This document shows positions 12,452 through 40,997 of a DNA stretch of 40,997 nucleotides, piece after piece; position 1 is the first letter of the stretch; every line of letters starts with the position of its first letter. The stretch comes from a virus. The notes under the pieces were generated by a model. It did no database searches and was not told the DNA's origin. It saw only the letters and a program-made list of their open reading frames with translations. The translations under genes and the position numbers were made by a program. The stretch lies in the UHGV virus genome UHGV-0123923; one strand, 5' to 3'.

Positions 12452-12727
12452 TTATTCCAGGTCGCGGGAGATATTACCCTCGGGCACCAACACTTTTCCA
12501 ATACTTCTCGCTTTCTCTGTAATAGGCGTCGCTCTTGTTGCCCGATAAAACTTTCCTTTATTAAGAATCTCACCATGTCGCTCGAGCACATCTAAAGCAT
12601 GTTTGATCGGGTTTACACCGTAATTATCCAACCGGTATCTCCGAAGCCCGTCTACCGTAAAAGCGCCGTTCGCTTCGGTCAGTCTGCGTGCACACATTAA
12701 TATGTGTTTCTGGAATTTAGTTAGCAT
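12452..12727 (-). CDS. hypothetical protein (~91 aa)
   Basis: start placed at the ATG behind a TAAGGAGA RBS; the longer upstream extension in the ORF track is likely spurious. Confidence 0.4.
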   Translation of the reverse strand: MLTKFQKHILMCARRLTEANGAFTVDGLRRYRLDNYGVNPIKHALDVLERHGEILNKGKFYRATRATPITEKARSIGKVLVPEGNISRDLE

Positions 12728-12896
12728 CTTTAACGTTCTCCTTAATCCACGCCTCCACAGTAGCGCGGTCAAAGGTACCTGGCTGACGGTAGCCGTTGAT
12801 AACGCGGCAACACTCCGGGAACTTTCCTGACCGAAGCCAGCGATTAAGAGTCATAGGGGAAACCCCGATTAAGTCTGCTACTTCTTTCTGTGTCAT
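12717..12896 (-). CDS. AlpA/excisionase-like small HTH DNA-binding protein
   Basis: start placed at ATG (MTQKEVADLIGVSPMTLNRWL) behind a GAGAGGG RBS; first gene of the primase operon. Confidence 0.55.
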   Translation of the reverse strand: MTQKEVADLIGVSPMTLNRWLRSGKFPECCRVINGYRQPGTFDRATVEAWIKENVKDAN

Positions 12897-12925
12897 TTTA
12901 CGCGCCCTCTCTATCAAGTGAAACA

Positions 12926-12954
12926 ACTATAACACCTACAATAGACAAACACAA
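12926..12954 (-). promoter_or_regulatory. candidate promoter of the primase operon (TTGTGT-N17-TATAGT)
   Basis: -10 is the reverse complement of 12926..12931; AATAG(12940..12944) and CTATT(12956..12960) arms flank the -35. Confidence 0.3.
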
Positions 12955-12958
12955 CCTA

Positions 12959-12986
12959 TTGACAAAATAAAATGTAGCTGTAAAAT
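12959..12986 (+). promoter_or_regulatory. candidate rightward promoter (TTGACA-N16-TAAAAT)
   Basis: TTGACA 12959..12964, TAAAAT 12981..12986 preceded by TG; AT-rich surroundings. Confidence 0.4.
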
Positions 12987-13053
12987 CAACGTATCGAATG
13001 GCTTTAGTTAAGAATTACTTAGAAACAATATTCTTAAGTCTCGGGTACTTAAA

Positions 13054-13073
13054 GCCCCGCCATAAAGCGGGGC
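13054..13073. other. conserved GC hairpin element, copy 1 (GCCCCGC-CATAAA-GCGGGGC)
   Basis: 7 bp perfect stem; same stem and flanks recur inverted at 24547..24566. Confidence 0.5.
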
Positions 13074-13317
13074 GCTAAATAGTACTCTTGGTAACGTTAG
13101 TATCTAAGTTTCCTCAAAGTAACAGCAAGTGGCAAGAAAGCCCCCGTCTATTTAAATTTTACCCTCCTTCATAAGCCACTGATAATTAAAAGTTTCTATA
13201 GTTGCCGTAAACGTGGAAGAGAGTACTTCACTTCGCTGGGGTGGGCTAACGCCCACCCACTGCGTTGCGTACTCTTTTAAGAAACGAAAGAATCACAACG
13301 GCAACGTAACTATTCTC

Positions 13318-13346
13318 TTGCACACCCCAACATAATAGGATACTAT
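13318..13346 (+). promoter_or_regulatory. promoter (TTGCAC-N17-TACTAT) with operator motif, for the rightward small-gene block
   Basis: TTGCAC 13318..13323, TACTAT 13341..13346; AATAG(13334..13338)-GATA-CTATT(13343..13347); ~36/39 nt identical to the reverse-strand promoter at 33012..33040. Confidence 0.55.
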
Positions 13347-13380
13347 TCACTTATCGAAACGAGACAGAGGAGTGAGGGTT

Positions 13381-13572: not shown

Positions 13573-13772
13573 TGGAAGAATTATTTGAAGAACTGAAACA
13601 TCATGATTTCGAGGAAATATATTTCGTAGCTGAACGCTACGAGGTGCATTTATCGGACGGGATTACAATTATTACGATGGATAGCCAGCAAATGCTAAAT
13701 AGCTTACAGGCAATCAAAACGGCATCGAATCGTGATGCTTGTGCCGACGACTCTGAGGGAGGTTGCCGTTAA
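13569..13772 (+). CDS. hypothetical acidic protein (67 aa)
   Basis: ATGA start/stop overlap with the upstream gene. Confidence 0.5.
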   Translation: MMEELFEELKHHDFEEIYFVAERYEVHLSDGITIITMDSQQMLNSLQAIKTASNRDACADDSEGGCR

Positions 13773-13951
13773 TGCGAATCCGTATAACTGACCGCAGGCT
13801 TGTCCGTATAACTGACCGCAGGCTTATAGATTTCGGTATCTCGGTAGGTGATGTTTTTCCGGCGTTCAGCATCAACCATTATGGTTTTATGATTGAGTAC
13901 AAAGGGTCGTTATTGTTCGTGTATCGGGATGAATGTGAGGTTCTGGTATGA
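13772..13951 (+). CDS. hypothetical protein containing an 8-residue tandem peptide repeat
   Basis: ATG behind GAGGGAGG RBS; 24 bp tandem duplication encodes RITDRRLV-RITDRRLI. Confidence 0.45.
   Translation: MRIRITDRRLVRITDRRLIDFGISVGDVFPAFSINHYGFMIEYKGSLLFVYRDECEVLV
13780..13827. repeat. 24 bp tandem direct repeat, 2 copies, 23/24 identical
   Basis: CCGTATAACTGACCGCAGGCTTGT then CCGTATAACTGACCGCAGGCTTAT, read directly. Confidence 0.85.
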
Positions 13952-14103
13952 GAGAAGCATTTGAACGGTGGGCTGTGGTCGAGGGTCTGCCGGTTAACAA
14001 GGGTTCAAAGAAAGAGTACCTGAACGTTAAGACGCGTCTCGCGTGGCGGGCGTGGAAAGCTGGTGTGCAATCCTTGATTGAAAGAGGTGTGAGGTATGGG
14101 TGA
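13948..14103 (+). CDS. hypothetical small protein (51 aa), below the ORF-track cutoff
   Basis: ATGA overlap with the upstream stop; stop overlaps the next gene start. Confidence 0.3.
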   Translation: MREAFERWAVVEGLPVNKGSKKEYLNVKTRLAWRAWKAGVQSLIERGVRYG

Positions 14104-14296
14104 GTGGATTAAGTGTAGCGAGATGCTGCCGGGTAATGGGTATACGGATAAAGAGTTCCTGGTGTATGAAACGTTAAATAACGCAGTTCAGCACGATTAT
14201 TACATAGTTCCTGATGACGGGAGAAAGCCTTTCTGGAATCACTACGATAAGTACGTGACGCACTGGATGCCGTTACCCGAGCCGCCAGAAGTGTGA
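14096..14296 (+). CDS. DUF551-like protein
   Basis: MGEWIKCSEMLP N-terminus and THWMPLPEPPEV C-terminus; paralog of 8487..8744. Confidence 0.5.
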   Translation: MGEWIKCSEMLPGNGYTDKEFLVYETLNNAVQHDYYIVPDDGRKPFWNHYDKYVTHWMPLPEPPEV

Positions 14297-14430: not shown

Positions 14431-14604
14431 ATGATTACTAAAGAACAGGCTGAACGACTAATCACGTTAATCGACACGATGGTTGATGCGAAAACCGATT
14501 TAGCAACGGCAACAGAGGAATCCGCTACCTGGTCGCTTGAAGAAAGAGAGGCAGAAGCGGAAAGGGAGTTACTGGCGTTCATCGACTCTATAACACACCA
14601 ATAA
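14431..14604 (+). CDS. hypothetical small acidic protein (57 aa)
   Basis: ATG behind GGAG; the antisense ORF 14370..14582 in the track is probably its shadow. Confidence 0.3.
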   Translation: MITKEQAERLITLIDTMVDAKTDLATATEESATWSLEEREAEAERELLAFIDSITHQ

Positions 14605-25798: not shown

Positions 25799-26767
25799 AT
25801 GTCTCTGTCAGATATGAAGGTTTATAACGACGATATCGTCGGTACCACTATCGAACTGCTTGGCCAGAAAACTGACCAGTTTAACGCAGCCTCCGGTGGC
25901 GCAATTGTACTGTCTACCGCTTCATGGCGCGGTGACTTCTCCCGTGAGTCTTTCTTTAACCAGATTGCCTCCGCTAAACGCCGCGTTGACCGTTACGCCG
26001 CTATCGCGTCTCAGGCAGCTACCGCGCTGACTCAGGGCGAGCGTGTAGGCGTTAAAGTCGCTGGCGGCTTCGGACCGGTACTGTTCGAGCCTGCGCAAAT
26101 GACCTGGCTGAACGAAGACCCGGCGAGCGCGATTCGTGCTATCTCCGAAGGGTTCTCTGACGCACTGTTAGCTGACCAGCTTAACACCGCTGTTGGTGCC
26201 GCCGTTGCCGCGGTATCAGGTCAGGCTGCACTGGTTAACGATGTATCCGCGACCGCTGGCTTGTCCCTGAACGTGCTGAACAACAGCCACGCTAAATTCG
26301 GCGACCAGTCTCAGTTGTTGGTCACTGACATCATGACCGGCGCGGCATACCACACTCTGGTGGACAAAGCGCTGACCAACGCAAACCAGTTGTTCGTTGC
26401 TGGCAACGTTATGGTTGTCGATGTTCTCGGCAAGCGTTACGTAATTTCCGACATCCCTGCGCTGTACGAAGCTGGCACCCCGAACAAGACTAAGGTTCTG
26501 TCCGTAGTTGCGAACGGCATCATCGTTGATAATGCTTCTGATATTATCAGCAACATTGACACCAGCAACGGTAACACCCGCATCCAGACCACCTGGCAGG
26601 CGGACTACAGCTTCGGCCTGAAACTGAAAGGCTACAGCTGGGACGTTACCAACGGCGGTAAATCTCCGCTGGACGCAGAACTGTTCACCGCGACTAACTG
26701 GGACAAAGCTGTTGCCGAGAACAAGCACACCCTCGGTACTCTGGCAATCGCCGACGCAGACCTGTAA
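25799..26767 (+). CDS. major capsid protein
   Basis: 322 aa after the scaffold; GAGGATAA RBS; strong terminator immediately downstream. Confidence 0.75.
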   Translation: MSLSDMKVYNDDIVGTTIELLGQKTDQFNAASGGAIVLSTASWRGDFSRESFFNQIASAKRRVDRYAAIASQAATALTQGERVGVKVAGGFGPVLFEPAQMTWLNEDPASAIRAISEGFSDALLADQLNTAVGAAVAAVSGQAALVNDVSATAGLSLNVLNNSHAKFGDQSQLLVTDIMTGAAYHTLVDKALTNANQLFVAGNVMVVDVLGKRYVISDIPALYEAGTPNKTKVLSVVANGIIVDNASDIISNIDTSNGNTRIQTTWQADYSFGLKLKGYSWDVTNGGKSPLDAELFTATNWDKAVAENKHTLGTLAIADADL

Positions 26768-38533: not shown

Positions 38534-40997
38534 ATGCCGATGGAGTTTGTCGTTAGTCGTATCCCTGACGGCGTGCCGGTGCGCGTCTACCTCGGTGAGA
38601 TTGGCGATGATACAGACGTAACGGACGACTTCGACGCGCTTAAAGATGAAGACGCTGTGTACCACATTATTGAGGGTGCGGGTAGCGGGGCGCTCGGTGC
38701 GGTTAGTAAGGTGTTTGGTTTTATCCTTAAGCCAATCGCCAAGTTGTTTGGCCTGAACACGGCCGCCAACGCCAACTACACGGCGACTAACAACCAGACA
38801 ACATCACCAAATAACAGCCTCACAGACCGCTCAAACAAACCACGCCCTTACGAGCGCTCCTATGACATCTGCGGGACTGTGCAGACAATCCCTAATGACC
38901 TGATGCAGACGTATAAGGCGTTCAACTCCACTGGTGCTTTGCTGGAGTATTCGTACTATGACGCAGGGCGCGGACATCTGCATATTGAGGCTGATGGCGT
39001 CACAGAGGGCGACACCCTGATAAGCGACATCACAGGTTCATCTGTTGCCGTATACGCGCCGTATACGTCACCGAACAACACCACATCGCCGCAACTACAA
39101 ATCGGCGACGTCATCGACCAGAAACTCTATGTGACGTACTCTAACGACGACGTTGACGGTATTGTACTGAAAGCGCCAAACGACATTGGAGCTAACCCAA
39201 GCGCCGACGGCACAGCTAAACGTATTTCAAACACCGGCTACATTTATGACCCGTCAGGGGACTCTGCTTTTTCTGAGTTTCTTAGCGTCGGGGATGTCGC
39301 GGTTCTGAGCAACTTCGACGTTGCTGATGTGACTAACCTGAATGGTTCGTTTGAGGTTTTATACGTTGACGACTTCGAAGTGAGATTAGCCGTAAACGGC
39401 GCGTCTAACTGGGCAGCGTTGACCAGCGGGCAAACGTACGCCCTAACAGAGCGTTCAGATACGTTTATCGGCCCGAGCAACACCTATGACGTATCTCTTA
39501 CGGACTGGTATTACATGGTGCGCGGAGAGGTTGACCGGGTACTTGCTAACGTTGCCGGGCAGAACGGCCTCTACAAATACGACGGAGGCTATAACCGCAC
39601 CAGTGTAACGGTGGAACTCCAGTACCAGATGATTGATTCTCAGCGTAACCCGTTGAGCGATATTTACACGGTACAGGCCACAATTACAGGCAACAATACG
39701 GATTACGTCGGTACGTCTATCTACGGGCAATTGCCGACCGCGTCCCGTTTCCGCGCCCGTATGCGTCGTGTAACTAATTTCGATAAAGACTACGACGGTA
39801 CGGTAAGCGACGAGATAACATTCATTAACCTGTATGGGCAGTCTCTGGACACCACTCCACACTACGGCAACAGAACTACCGTACATTGCGCCCGTAAACA
39901 GACGCCGCGTGCCGCCAGCATAGACAACCCGGAACTGCGCATGATTGCAACCGAGATGTGTTACAAATACCTCGGCAATGGGGTATTCGATACAGTAATG
40001 ACACCGAACACGCAAGCCGTACAATCTCTAATTCGACTGGCGCGCGACCCCGCAGTAGGCAATCTGGAACTGACAACGGCAAACATGGACAAGTTACTTG
40101 CTGTGCAGGAAGAAATTGAGTCCTATTTCGGAAGTGAATTAGCAGGGCAATTCTGCTACACGTTCGACGACTATGACACAACCATGCAGGACATCGTCCA
40201 GACCATAGCGGAAGCCGTTTTCTGTACTGCGTACCGTAAAGGTGCGGATATTATGCTGCGATTCGACCGTCCTGTCGCGGGGCCTGAAATGGTGTTCACC
40301 CACCGCAGCAAAACTACCGGTACAGAGAAATGGACCCGCACGTTCAACGATTCGACAACCTACGATAGCCTGTCGTTCTCATACATCGACCCGGATACTA
40401 ACGTACAGGAAACGATTTACATCCCGGAAGAACTGGGTGCAAATACGGAGGAATACGAATCAAAGGGCGTGCGTAACTACCAACAGGCATATTGGCTGGC
40501 GTGGCGTCGCTATCAGCGCAATGCGTTAAGTAAAGTTGTTGTAGAGTTCGAAGCTACGGAAGAAGGTGCGCTCGCTACGCCCGGTGGGGTAATCAGCGTA
40601 GTTAAAGGTTCACGTATCGCGCCACAGGACGGCTATGTTGTTGCCGTTAACGGGCTTACACTTACGCTATCCCAGCCTGTTACGTTTACTCCTGGCGACG
40701 ACCACTCCATCATTCTTAAGAAGCGCGATGGCTCAGTGCAGAGTATCTCTGTCATCAAAGGAAGACACGACCGCGAAGTGATTATGCTCTCCGCGCCGGA
40801 GGAGGCAATCTACACGGGGAATAGCGCACTAAAAACTGAGTTTTCATTCGGCAACGAAGCAAGGCATAATGCCCAGAAGATAGTTGTTTCTTCAATCGAC
40901 CCTGGCGACGACCGCACGGTCAAGATTACTGGCTACAACTATGACGACGGATTCTATAAATACGACGGCGTCGCGCCATACGGCAGCGGTTTCTCCG
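38534..40997 (+). CDS. tail tip / host specificity protein (lambda gpI/gpJ-like), 3' partial at window end
   Basis: I traced one frame codon by codon from ATG 38534 to the last base with no stop (at least 821 codons); absent from the ORF track, presumably because it lacks an in-window stop; start codon uncertain (TTG 38468 also possible). Confidence 0.6.
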   Translation, partial: MPMEFVVSRIPDGVPVRVYLGEIGDDTDVTDDFDALKDEDAVYHIIEGAGSGALGAVSKVFGFILKPIAKLFGLNTAANANYTATNNQTTSPNNSLTDRSNKPRPYERSYDICGTVQTIPNDLMQTYKAFNSTGALLEYSYYDAGRGHLHIEADGVTEGDTLISDITGSSVAVYAPYTSPNNTTSPQLQIGDVIDQKLYVTYSNDDVDGIVLKAPNDIGANPSADGTAKRISNTGYIYDPSGDSAFSEFLSVGDVAVLSNFDVADVTNLNGSFEVLYVDDFEVRLAVNGASNWAALTSGQTYALTERSDTFIGPSNTYDVSLTDWYYMVRGEVDRVLANVAGQNGLYKYDGGYNRTSVTVELQYQMIDSQRNPLSDIYTVQATITGNNTDYVGTSIYGQLPTASRFRARMRRVTNFDKDYDGTVSDEITFINLYGQSLDTTPHYGNRTTVHCARKQTPRAASIDNPELRMIATEMCYKYLGNGVFDTVMTPNTQAVQSLIRLARDPAVGNLELTTANMDKLLAVQEEIESYFGSELAGQFCYTFDDYDTTMQDIVQTIAEAVFCTAYRKGADIMLRFDRPVAGPEMVFTHRSKTTGTEKWTRTFNDSTTYDSLSFSYIDPDTNVQETIYIPEELGANTEEYESKGVRNYQQAYWLAWRRYQRNALSKVVVEFEATEEGALATPGGVISVVKGSRIAPQDGYVVAVNGLTLTLSQPVTFTPGDDHSIILKKRDGSVQSISVIKGRHDREVIMLSAPEEAIYTGNSALKTEFSFGNEARHNAQKIVVSSIDPGDDRTVKITGYNYDDGFYKYDGVAPYGSGFS

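Follow-up and report, generated by a model that had tools for sequence, protein, structure and literature searches.

A perfect tandem array opens a small Kagunavirus gene

The 40,997-bp stretch of DNA analyzed here, which we refer to as the window, is, judged from its sequence matches, a lytic E. coli siphophage of the genus Kagunavirus. The region studied was matched by 150 phage records, almost all of them Escherichia or Salmonella siphophages of the subfamily Guernseyvirinae, and its closest relatives were the Kagunavirus isolates vB_EcoS_fTaEco01, K1ind2, K1ind3, K1G, K1H, UTI-CM001, and vB_EcoS-UTI89UKE1. A megablast search of 5,426 complete E. coli genomes returned no match to the region, and we therefore rejected the idea that the window is a prophage element. 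The replication module (polymerase, helicases, helicase-primase) fills the minus strand as far as about 12.4 kb. It is followed by a minus-strand HTH gene (12717..12926) and an AT-rich divergent region, beyond which overlapping small ORFs, starting at 13372, are arrayed rightward in the direction of the packaging and structural genes. A candidate promoter at 12959..12986 (TTGACA-16-TAAAAT), recognized by consensus match only, fits rightward transcription of this small-ORF cluster.

Within the cluster, a plus-strand ORF extends from the ATG at 13772 to the TGA at 13951 and encodes a 59-aa protein (MRIRITDRRLVRITDRRLIDFGISVGDVF...; complete product MRIRITDRRLVRITDRRLIDFGISVGDVFPAFSINHYGFMIEYKGSLLFVYRDECEVLV) assigned to PHROG 30395. 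Its start codon is the one annotated in relatives (e.g., QNO11915.1). A Shine-Dalgarno-like GAGGGAGG (13755..13762, plus strand) lies 9 nt upstream of this ATG and is invariant in the alignment, and the stop codon of the upstream ORF overlaps the start codon (TAATG). At its other end the gene shares an ATGA overlap with a downstream 51-aa gene (13948..14103, plus strand; PHROG 15836), orthologues of which carry PF26207 Phage_phiTE_015, so that the repeat-bearing gene sits within a translationally coupled string of small ORFs. Its neighbors are small phage ORFs (PHROGs 12538, 30617, and 15836, DUF551, DUF7438) and an HTH regulator. Given the Shine-Dalgarno sequence, the overlapping stop and start codons, the PHROG 30395 assignment, and about 60 clusters of homologues in which the G/GD/E columns are invariant, sequence evidence identifies 13772..13951 as a genuine small accessory gene conserved in Kagunavirus phages. 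Early expression of this gene, which the first-pass annotation had called early, is plausible; in the one Kagunavirus time-course transcriptome that we found, only 4 of 57 genes were classed as early and the repeat-bearing gene was not identified (PMC12645636).

Directly 5′ of the repeat lies a conserved 57-nt junction (13718..13774, plus strand) that spans the final 17 codons of the upstream ORF, the Shine-Dalgarno sequence, and the start codon, all in invariant alignment columns. This junction is common to phages that otherwise have unrelated upstream genes, and 25 of 60 records among the matches listed aligned to nothing more than the junction and, in some cases, the opening codons of the repeat-bearing gene. 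It looks like a mosaic module boundary or a recombination linker.

Tandem Repeats Finder reported one strong array in the window, a plus-strand 24-bp tandem at 13779..13825 (2.0 copies, 100% matches, score 94); all other arrays scored 45 or less. The first unit, TCCGTATAACTGACCGCAGGCTTG (13779..13802), ends in a junction base, G13802, that is the first base of a Val codon (GTC), and the second (13803..13826), which runs on directly into the remainder of the domain, ends in A13826, the first base of an Ile codon (ATA). The two units are identical over 23 bases (13803..13825) and differ only at this final position, giving a perfect 47-bp array; by direct calculation, the chance of a 23-base tandem match in 41 kb is less than about 1e-7. 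In codon register the array encodes RITDRRLV (13781..13804) and RITDRRLI (13805..13828), beginning 7 nt past the ATG and occupying codons 4–19 in frame. The first-pass annotation, which had placed two adjacent 24-bp units differing at one base at 13780-13803 and 13804-13827 and had read RITDRRLV-RITDRRLI in the 59-aa product of 13772..13951, was borne out on both counts by the sequence and the ORF translation. The head-to-tail arrangement of near-identical units is that of a coding VNTR or minisatellite. A search with the 21-nt core of the unit found no further place in the 40,997-bp window with up to 3 mismatches allowed, and the same search in 100 shuffles gave 0 matches.

Relatives differ by whole repeat units

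We compared the orthologous locus in the window and in 41 fetched loci drawn from phage records, IMG/VR, JGI metagenomes, ENA, and Logan contigs; these loci were partly chosen by allele, and their counts are not allele frequencies. All array differences among the orthologous loci consisted of whole 24-bp units, and we designate alleles by the number of units and their junction bases. A single unit with junction base A (1A) was present in 16 loci, including LF7074P1, NTEC3, phiEc3, VIPECOTH07, EC3-1, fEg-Eco19, G AB-2017, and BUCT825, and encodes a 51-aa protein (MRIRITDRRLIDFG...). Two units occurred in two forms, both encoding 59 aa: 2GA, with RLV/RLI, in nine loci (among them the window, fTaEco01, K1ind3, and UTI89UKE1), and 2AA, with RLI/RLI, in eleven (L024 and L030–L039). 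Three units, encoding 67 aa, were found as 3GGA in UTI-CM001 only and as 3AAA in three loci, namely K1G, K1H, and L007, the last being the IMG/VR copy of K1H. The G junction base was common to the 2GA and 3GGA alleles. One unit was the most widespread state and the norm across Kagunavirus, and it also appeared within the multi-copy clade (L026–L029). Relatives were thus not fixed for two copies, the pattern that the first-pass annotation had said would count against a changeable array; instead, isolates and metagenomes carried 1, 2, or 3. In the records themselves, the repeat-bearing gene is left unannotated in K1G, K1H, and K1ind3, and the 51-aa protein is mislabelled 'glycosyl hydrolase' in several others.

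Protein database counts agreed with this picture. The two-copy, 59-aa protein was represented by 93 contigs with the Val junction (P0010) and 126 with the Ile junction (P0013), and a single-copy protein on the same 'PAFSIN' backbone by 19 (P0015). Two copies on the other, 'LAFSSN' backbone occurred in 2 contigs (P0023), and the three-copy, 67-aa protein in 1 (P0012). Among the cluster members listed, the clade comprised roughly 266 two-copy and 25 one-copy contigs with the same backbone, and of its isolate genomes, numbering about 11, 3 had three units. Arrays of four or more units were not found among 123 phage records, 6 IMG/VR loci, and 5 metagenome loci. De Bruijn assembly at k ≤47 can collapse three or more perfect units, so that their number in Logan and metagenome contigs is probably underestimated, and it may also hide arrays of four or more copies. 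A literature search found no paper combining Kagunavirus with tandem repeats.

Short-read assemblers can miscount short tandem repeats, and the array could in principle be a product of assembly or sequencing. We consider this explanation practically dismissed: k-mers longer than 23 suffice to resolve a two-copy array, collapse of three or more copies is likelier than the creation of two-copy arrays, and the repeat recurs in isolate genomes and in many independent assemblies that came from different laboratories and were made with different technologies, among them K1-phage genomes from 2010 and metagenomes assembled at k = 141.

The distribution of copy number also bears on whether the repeat acts in cis, as a duplicated binding site, an iteron, or a translation-initiation structure whose copy number matters. 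The repeat starts 7 nt past the ATG, where mRNA structure can affect initiation, and minimum-free-energy folds pair the Shine-Dalgarno region differently in the one-copy and two-copy mRNAs. Against this, folding of the DNA and RNA was no better than that of shuffles (z = +0.5, −1.4, +0.1, and +0.3), and mRNA structure around the start codon did not differ from shuffles for 1, 2, or 3 copies. Most relatives carry a single unit, the 41-kb window holds no further copy at up to 3 mismatches, and the 63-aa paralogous genes have an unrelated sequence at the repeat position. The units are strictly head-to-tail and identical, as for a duplication, rather than spaced sites, and we saw neither the several conserved copies nor the spacing of an iteron or repeated binding site. 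A cis-acting role is therefore very unlikely, and the earlier suggestion that the DNA doubles as a repeated protein-binding site found no support.

Array states change on identical flanks

We next asked how array states relate to the sequence around them. One identical flank haplotype, defined by 200 bp upstream and 300 bp downstream, carried four array states (2GA, 2AA, 3GGA, and 3AAA). With longer flanks (210 + 440 bp), two distinct haplotypes each carried both 2GA and 2AA, and K1G (3AAA) and a metagenomic contig (L039, 2AA) were identical over the entire 650 bp. With the repeat excised, UTI-CM001 (3GGA) and K1G (3AAA) differed by 1 flank substitution, and UTI89UKE1 (2GA) and the single-copy locus L026 (1A) by 6 substitutions in 840 bp. 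Because four array states share identical flanks, these sequence comparisons indicate that the array changes faster than point substitution, as expected under slipped-strand mispairing or template switching.

Fitch parsimony on a neighbor-joining tree of the flanks put the minimum at 6 changes of copy number, where 2 would be enough in the absence of homoplasy, and at 11 changes of allele state; these counts are soft and upper-biased given the very short internal branches of the tree and recombination. The homoplasy is compatible with reversible copy change. Since 3GGA can arise only from a G-junction unit and 3AAA only from an A-junction array, at least two independent expansions are required. 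Whole-unit copy differences on the same flanks, together with recurrent gains and losses (subject to the same caveat of branch length and recombination), are what is expected of a coding VNTR. The first-pass annotation had proposed a recent slippage event. The occurrence of 1, 2, or 3 whole units in close relatives and of differing arrays on identical flanks supports slippage; the notion of a single recent event did not hold, since the two-copy state dominates its clade (93 + 126 contigs) and has itself diversified, which points to a long-lived polymorphism.

Recombination is a second route to such patterns, and identical flanks with different arrays could partly reflect exchange between co-infecting phages in this highly mosaic region rather than de novo slippage. 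In its strongest form, this explanation holds that copy number changes mainly by homologous or unequal recombination, through phage or host recombinases, between co-infecting genomes or between tandem paralogues. The position of the 57-nt junction, shared by unrelated upstream modules and abutting the repeat, suggests a hotspot; 2GA and 2AA arrays each occur on two distinct flank haplotypes; and in E. coli, expansions and crossovers accompany template switching (PMC7145654). On the other hand, homology for unequal exchange amounts to only 23–47 bp, and exact single-unit changes in identical local haplotypes are most simply produced by intramolecular misalignment. We therefore view recombination as a possible but unlikely main source of the variation, noting that recombination and slippage are not exclusive and yield the same products.

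The encoded protein is predicted to be a small β-barrel

We then considered what additional units would do to the protein. Residues 11–59 matched positions 3–51 of the 51-position profile phrog_30395 (E = 9.7e-39), a full-length match to a family of unknown function. The profile corresponds to the one-copy form, and the first repeat unit falls outside it. Neither the 59-aa nor the 51-aa protein had a Pfam match at E up to 1. A profile search recovered about 60 homologue clusters, mostly of 63-aa proteins on 41–46-kb contigs, with invariant M1, RI of β1, G, GD, F, and E columns. A phmmer search of 1.84 billion representatives returned close relatives and one true 63-aa homologue; its other matches, to long cadherin-like, GW-repeat, and other repeat proteins, consisted of many weak stretches and were judged spurious.

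AlphaFold modeled the one-copy form at a pLDDT of 96.1, with strands at residues 2–5, 20–26, 30–35, 38–43, and 47–50 and a helix at 8–13. The protein is thus confidently predicted to be a small SH3-like, remotely FeoA-like β-barrel, in which the octapeptide that is duplicated would form the end of β1 and most of helix 1. The two-copy model (pLDDT 87.2) showed residues 1–8 as coil at a pLDDT of about 63, with β1 at 9–13 and the helix at 16–21. In this model, β1 and helix 1 derive from copy 2, and copy 1 is predicted to be a floppy basic N-terminal tail, although AlphaFold confidence is low in exactly the segment that decides whether the extra copy is placed as a tail or as a linker. Each octapeptide contributes R, D, R, and R, a net charge of +2.

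The 63-aa paralogues offer a natural comparison. These proteins, which match phrog_10916 weakly, resemble the window protein in locus, in start sequence (MRIRITD), and in fold (BFVD match, TM 0.85), and differ in that an unrelated 11-residue linker (DVDYVLPPGYG) is inserted at exactly the repeat position, where the window protein has its extra octapeptide. An insertion of this size in a protein of the same fold indicates that the position is structurally permissive, whether the added residues form a tail or a linker. In BUCT825 and fEg-Eco19 the two paralogues, of 63 aa and 51 aa, are tandem genes; ST20 and Bas71 have only the 63-aa form, at the same 57-nt junction.

Structure searches placed the fold in a broad class. 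Foldseek against the PDB gave nothing better than E 0.17, the matches being generic Hfq, ScaR C-terminal domain, SH3, and integrase C-terminal barrels, with FeoA at rank 50; against BFVD, apart from the protein itself and its paralogue, it returned uncharacterised proteins only. A PDB sequence profile search matched only designed double-psi barrel proteins, through a short 'GVSVGD..EV' motif at E 0.006 or worse, and this match was not used for assignment. The closest named family is FeoA/DtxR-C-terminal (PF04023), for which an annotator's record note cites an HHpred probability of 95.8. FeoA was the most frequent Pfam match within the family of the phage protein, at scores (8 of 54 members, best E 0.013) that did not reach the curated threshold. 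FeoA and the phage protein share a β1, short helix, four-strand order and a '...RL..(L/F)G(I/V).(V/P)GD...' motif; the model shows an SH3-like β-barrel in which a helix separates β1 from β2, a resemblance of fold class only, and FeoA and ScaR structures are among its fold matches. However, these matches are no better than those to Hfq, SH3, and integrase C-terminal barrels, FeoA is about 75 aa long against 51 aa for the one-copy phage protein, and the gene neighborhood contains no feoB or DtxR-type metalloregulator. With no Pfam match for the protein itself, sub-threshold scores in the family, and no feoB or metal-regulator context, we rejected membership of the FeoA family.

Strand misalignment with a tolerated tail as the probable explanation of the array

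Taken together, these results favor an in-frame VNTR generated by strand misalignment that leaves the barrel intact and drifts nearly neutrally among copy states, a reading to which we assign a probability of roughly 0.78. The ancestor would have been a single-copy gene beginning ATG MGA ATC CGT ATA ACT GAC CGC AGG CTT ATA GAT (M = A/C) and giving MRIRITDRRLID..., in which one founding duplication may have occurred between AT dinucleotides 24 bp apart (A-ATCCGT...GGCTT-AT-AG), which fits a microhomology-mediated event. The resulting 47-bp perfect repeat would then have offered ample substrate for strand misalignment in replication, with slipped-strand mispairing or RecA-independent template switching adding or removing whole units to yield the 1-, 2-, and 3-unit alleles. 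In E. coli, short direct repeats lying close together are established sites of deletion and expansion without RecA (PMC7145654). An A-to-G change at a unit junction would subsequently be copied or erased by later expansions and contractions: contraction of 2GA would necessarily give 1A, and re-expansion 2AA, so that the G could be lost without a point mutation. We considered a DNA hairpin as a promoter of slippage and rejected it; no hairpin was found at the repeat on either strand (folding z of about +0.5), and misalignment would not need one.

At the protein level, each extra unit would add an 8-residue N-terminal tail, RITDRRL[V/I], with a net charge of +2, or equivalently a linker at the site where the paralogues have their 11-residue insertion, and the barrel, formed with the unit that adjoins the remainder of the gene, would stay intact. 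Most likely, then, repeat variation does no more than give a small barrel protein, as modeled, a short arginine-rich tail. If the barrel does stay intact with extra units, copy changes would be tolerated and are probably nearly neutral, and the locus would drift among states. The dominance of the two-copy state in the clade is unlike what a strong deletion bias under pure neutrality predicts, and leaves room for selection.

Selection on length is the alternative that this dominance brings into view. Here, the number of N-terminal arginine-rich octapeptides would alter the activity or partner affinity of the barrel, and slippage would allow phage populations to sample 1, 2, or 3 copies, with two or more favored in the clade of K1 phages. 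The two-copy state predominates and persists there despite the expected ease of contraction, 3 of about 11 isolate genomes carry three copies, and each unit places a +2 charge beside a barrel of the SH3/Sm/FeoA fold class, whose members often bind partners via their termini. The 51-aa form, moreover, is without the 11-residue linker, and duplication restores a similar length (59 versus 63 aa). Yet one copy is the genus norm and occurs even inside the multi-copy clade (L026–L029), the frame is never altered, and the array spans only 1–3 copies and lacks the long tract that characterizes contingency loci; common descent alone could account for the prevalence. We regard adaptive tuning of length as improbable. 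A more specific version, in which octapeptide number acts as a selected dial on the binding of the mini-barrel to a host target, protein or nucleic acid, and in which two or more copies are favored because the 51-aa lineage lost the β1-helix linker kept by its 63-aa paralogue, is in our estimation a slim prospect. Were it true, the locus would count as a contingency locus for protein length, placed in an accessory gene of a lytic phage; and if copy number affects fitness at all, it would represent a rare case of repeat-mediated tuning of protein length in a phage host-takeover gene. The biological interest of the locus hinges on whether tail length matters.

The locus has several uses. A single flanking haplotype with four array states provides a clean natural example in a lytic phage, and the array is convenient as a PCR-sized typing marker for the K1G/K1H/K1ind/UTI89UKE1 clade, members of which are studied for phage therapy. 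The natural 51-, 59-, 63-, and 67-aa variants, which differ at one structural position, are useful for probing the role of a widespread accessory protein. The locus also carries a caution for assemblers and annotators, as three or more copies can collapse at k ≤47 and the gene may be unannotated or mislabelled.

The array compared with contingency loci and coding VNTRs

The first-pass annotation had raised the possibility of a contingency locus. Like such loci, the array mutates recurrently and probably reversibly through its repeats, at one defined position within a gene that likely acts in host interaction; unlike them, it is a short tract whose 24-bp unit never shifts the frame or promoter spacing. 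We observed neither on/off switching nor changes in promoter or Shine-Dalgarno spacing, and the 51-, 59-, and 67-aa ORFs are all intact. As the unit is 8 codons long and every allele is in frame, copy change cannot switch the gene on or off, which excludes the classical form of the claim.

The closer parallel is with bacterial and phage coding VNTRs, from which the Kagunavirus array differs in its very low copy range (1–3) and in its location in a 51–59-aa intracellular accessory protein rather than an adhesin, tail fibre, or tape-measure protein. It shares with them perfect head-to-tail units, gain and loss by entire units, a unit length divisible by 3, which preserves the frame, and copy number that varies between otherwise identical haplotypes. 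The locus is thus a genuine, recurrently changing in-frame VNTR of 1–3 copies, and a new example of a mechanism that is already well known.

A conserved junction precedes variable forms of the small barrel gene

The sequence immediately upstream of the repeat gene is a 57-nt conserved junction (13718..13774) that comprises the final 17 codons of the upstream ORF, the Shine-Dalgarno sequence GAGGGAGG and a TAATG overlap, and that encodes the upstream product's C-terminus, ...TASNxDAxADDSEGGCR*. This stretch is unchanged among Kagunaviruses even though the upstream genes are otherwise unrelated; in 25 of the 60 records listed, the match was confined to the junction, in some cases running on into the opening codons of the repeat gene. 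The junction resembles either the boundary of a mosaic module or a linker for recombination, or else a conserved translational-coupling element.

The small barrel gene itself occurs in two paralogous forms: the 63-aa form contains an 11-residue linker that the 51-aa form lacks. In some phages the two stand in tandem; in others a single form, either one, follows the same conserved junction. Pairs of small barrel genes lie at 461-652 and 656-811 of the BUCT825 locus and at 462-659 and 656-811 of the fEg-Eco19 locus; in ST20 and Bas71 a small barrel gene occupies 558-749 and 562-753 of the respective loci. The window holds the short form only, made longer by the 24-bp repeat. In EC3-1-like phages, an insertion of ~64 bp separates the junction from the small barrel gene, which has its own start (gene region at 458-671 of the EC3-1 locus). 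Protein P0007, a 77-aa call of this gene on a related contig, is extended at its N-terminus by a hydrophobic stretch (MNNYPFILIVSAVYVVHALWGVG-MRIRIT...) and could be either a membrane-anchored variant or a product whose start was miscalled.

Genomic surroundings and existing annotation

Downstream, an ORF at 13948..14103 overlaps the repeat gene at its 3' end and belongs to PHROG 15836, with orthologues matching PF26207 (Phage_phiTE_015). Nearby small ORFs at 14096..14296 and 14431..14604 match DUF551 (PF04448, E 6e-12) and DUF7438 (PF24219, E 4e-13), respectively. The entire small-ORF cluster is left without annotation in K1G, K1H and K1ind3. Elsewhere, 'glycosyl hydrolase', 'valyl-tRNA synthetase' and 'FeoA family protein' are among the labels that public records give to the 51-aa protein or to genes next to it, and the phiEc3 record of the 51-aa protein (QZI78322.1, 458-613 of its locus) is one of those concerned; on proteins of ~50-60 aa, the first two labels are clearly propagated errors.

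To the left, an AT-rich divergent region (12930..13370) separates leftward HTH and replication genes from the rightward small-ORF cluster, and GC content around it is 0.455 across 12-14 kb. This region, which contains a plus-strand promoter-like site at 12959..12986 (11/12 match to TTGACA-16-TAAAAT), is likely a control region. It possibly also lies near the replication origin; the minimum of the window's cumulative GC skew falls at ~12 kb.

Two weak tandem repeats, at 26548..26582 (15 bp x 2.3, 80% identity) and 39672..39697 (13 bp x 2.0, 92%), both fall in the half of the genome that holds the structural genes.
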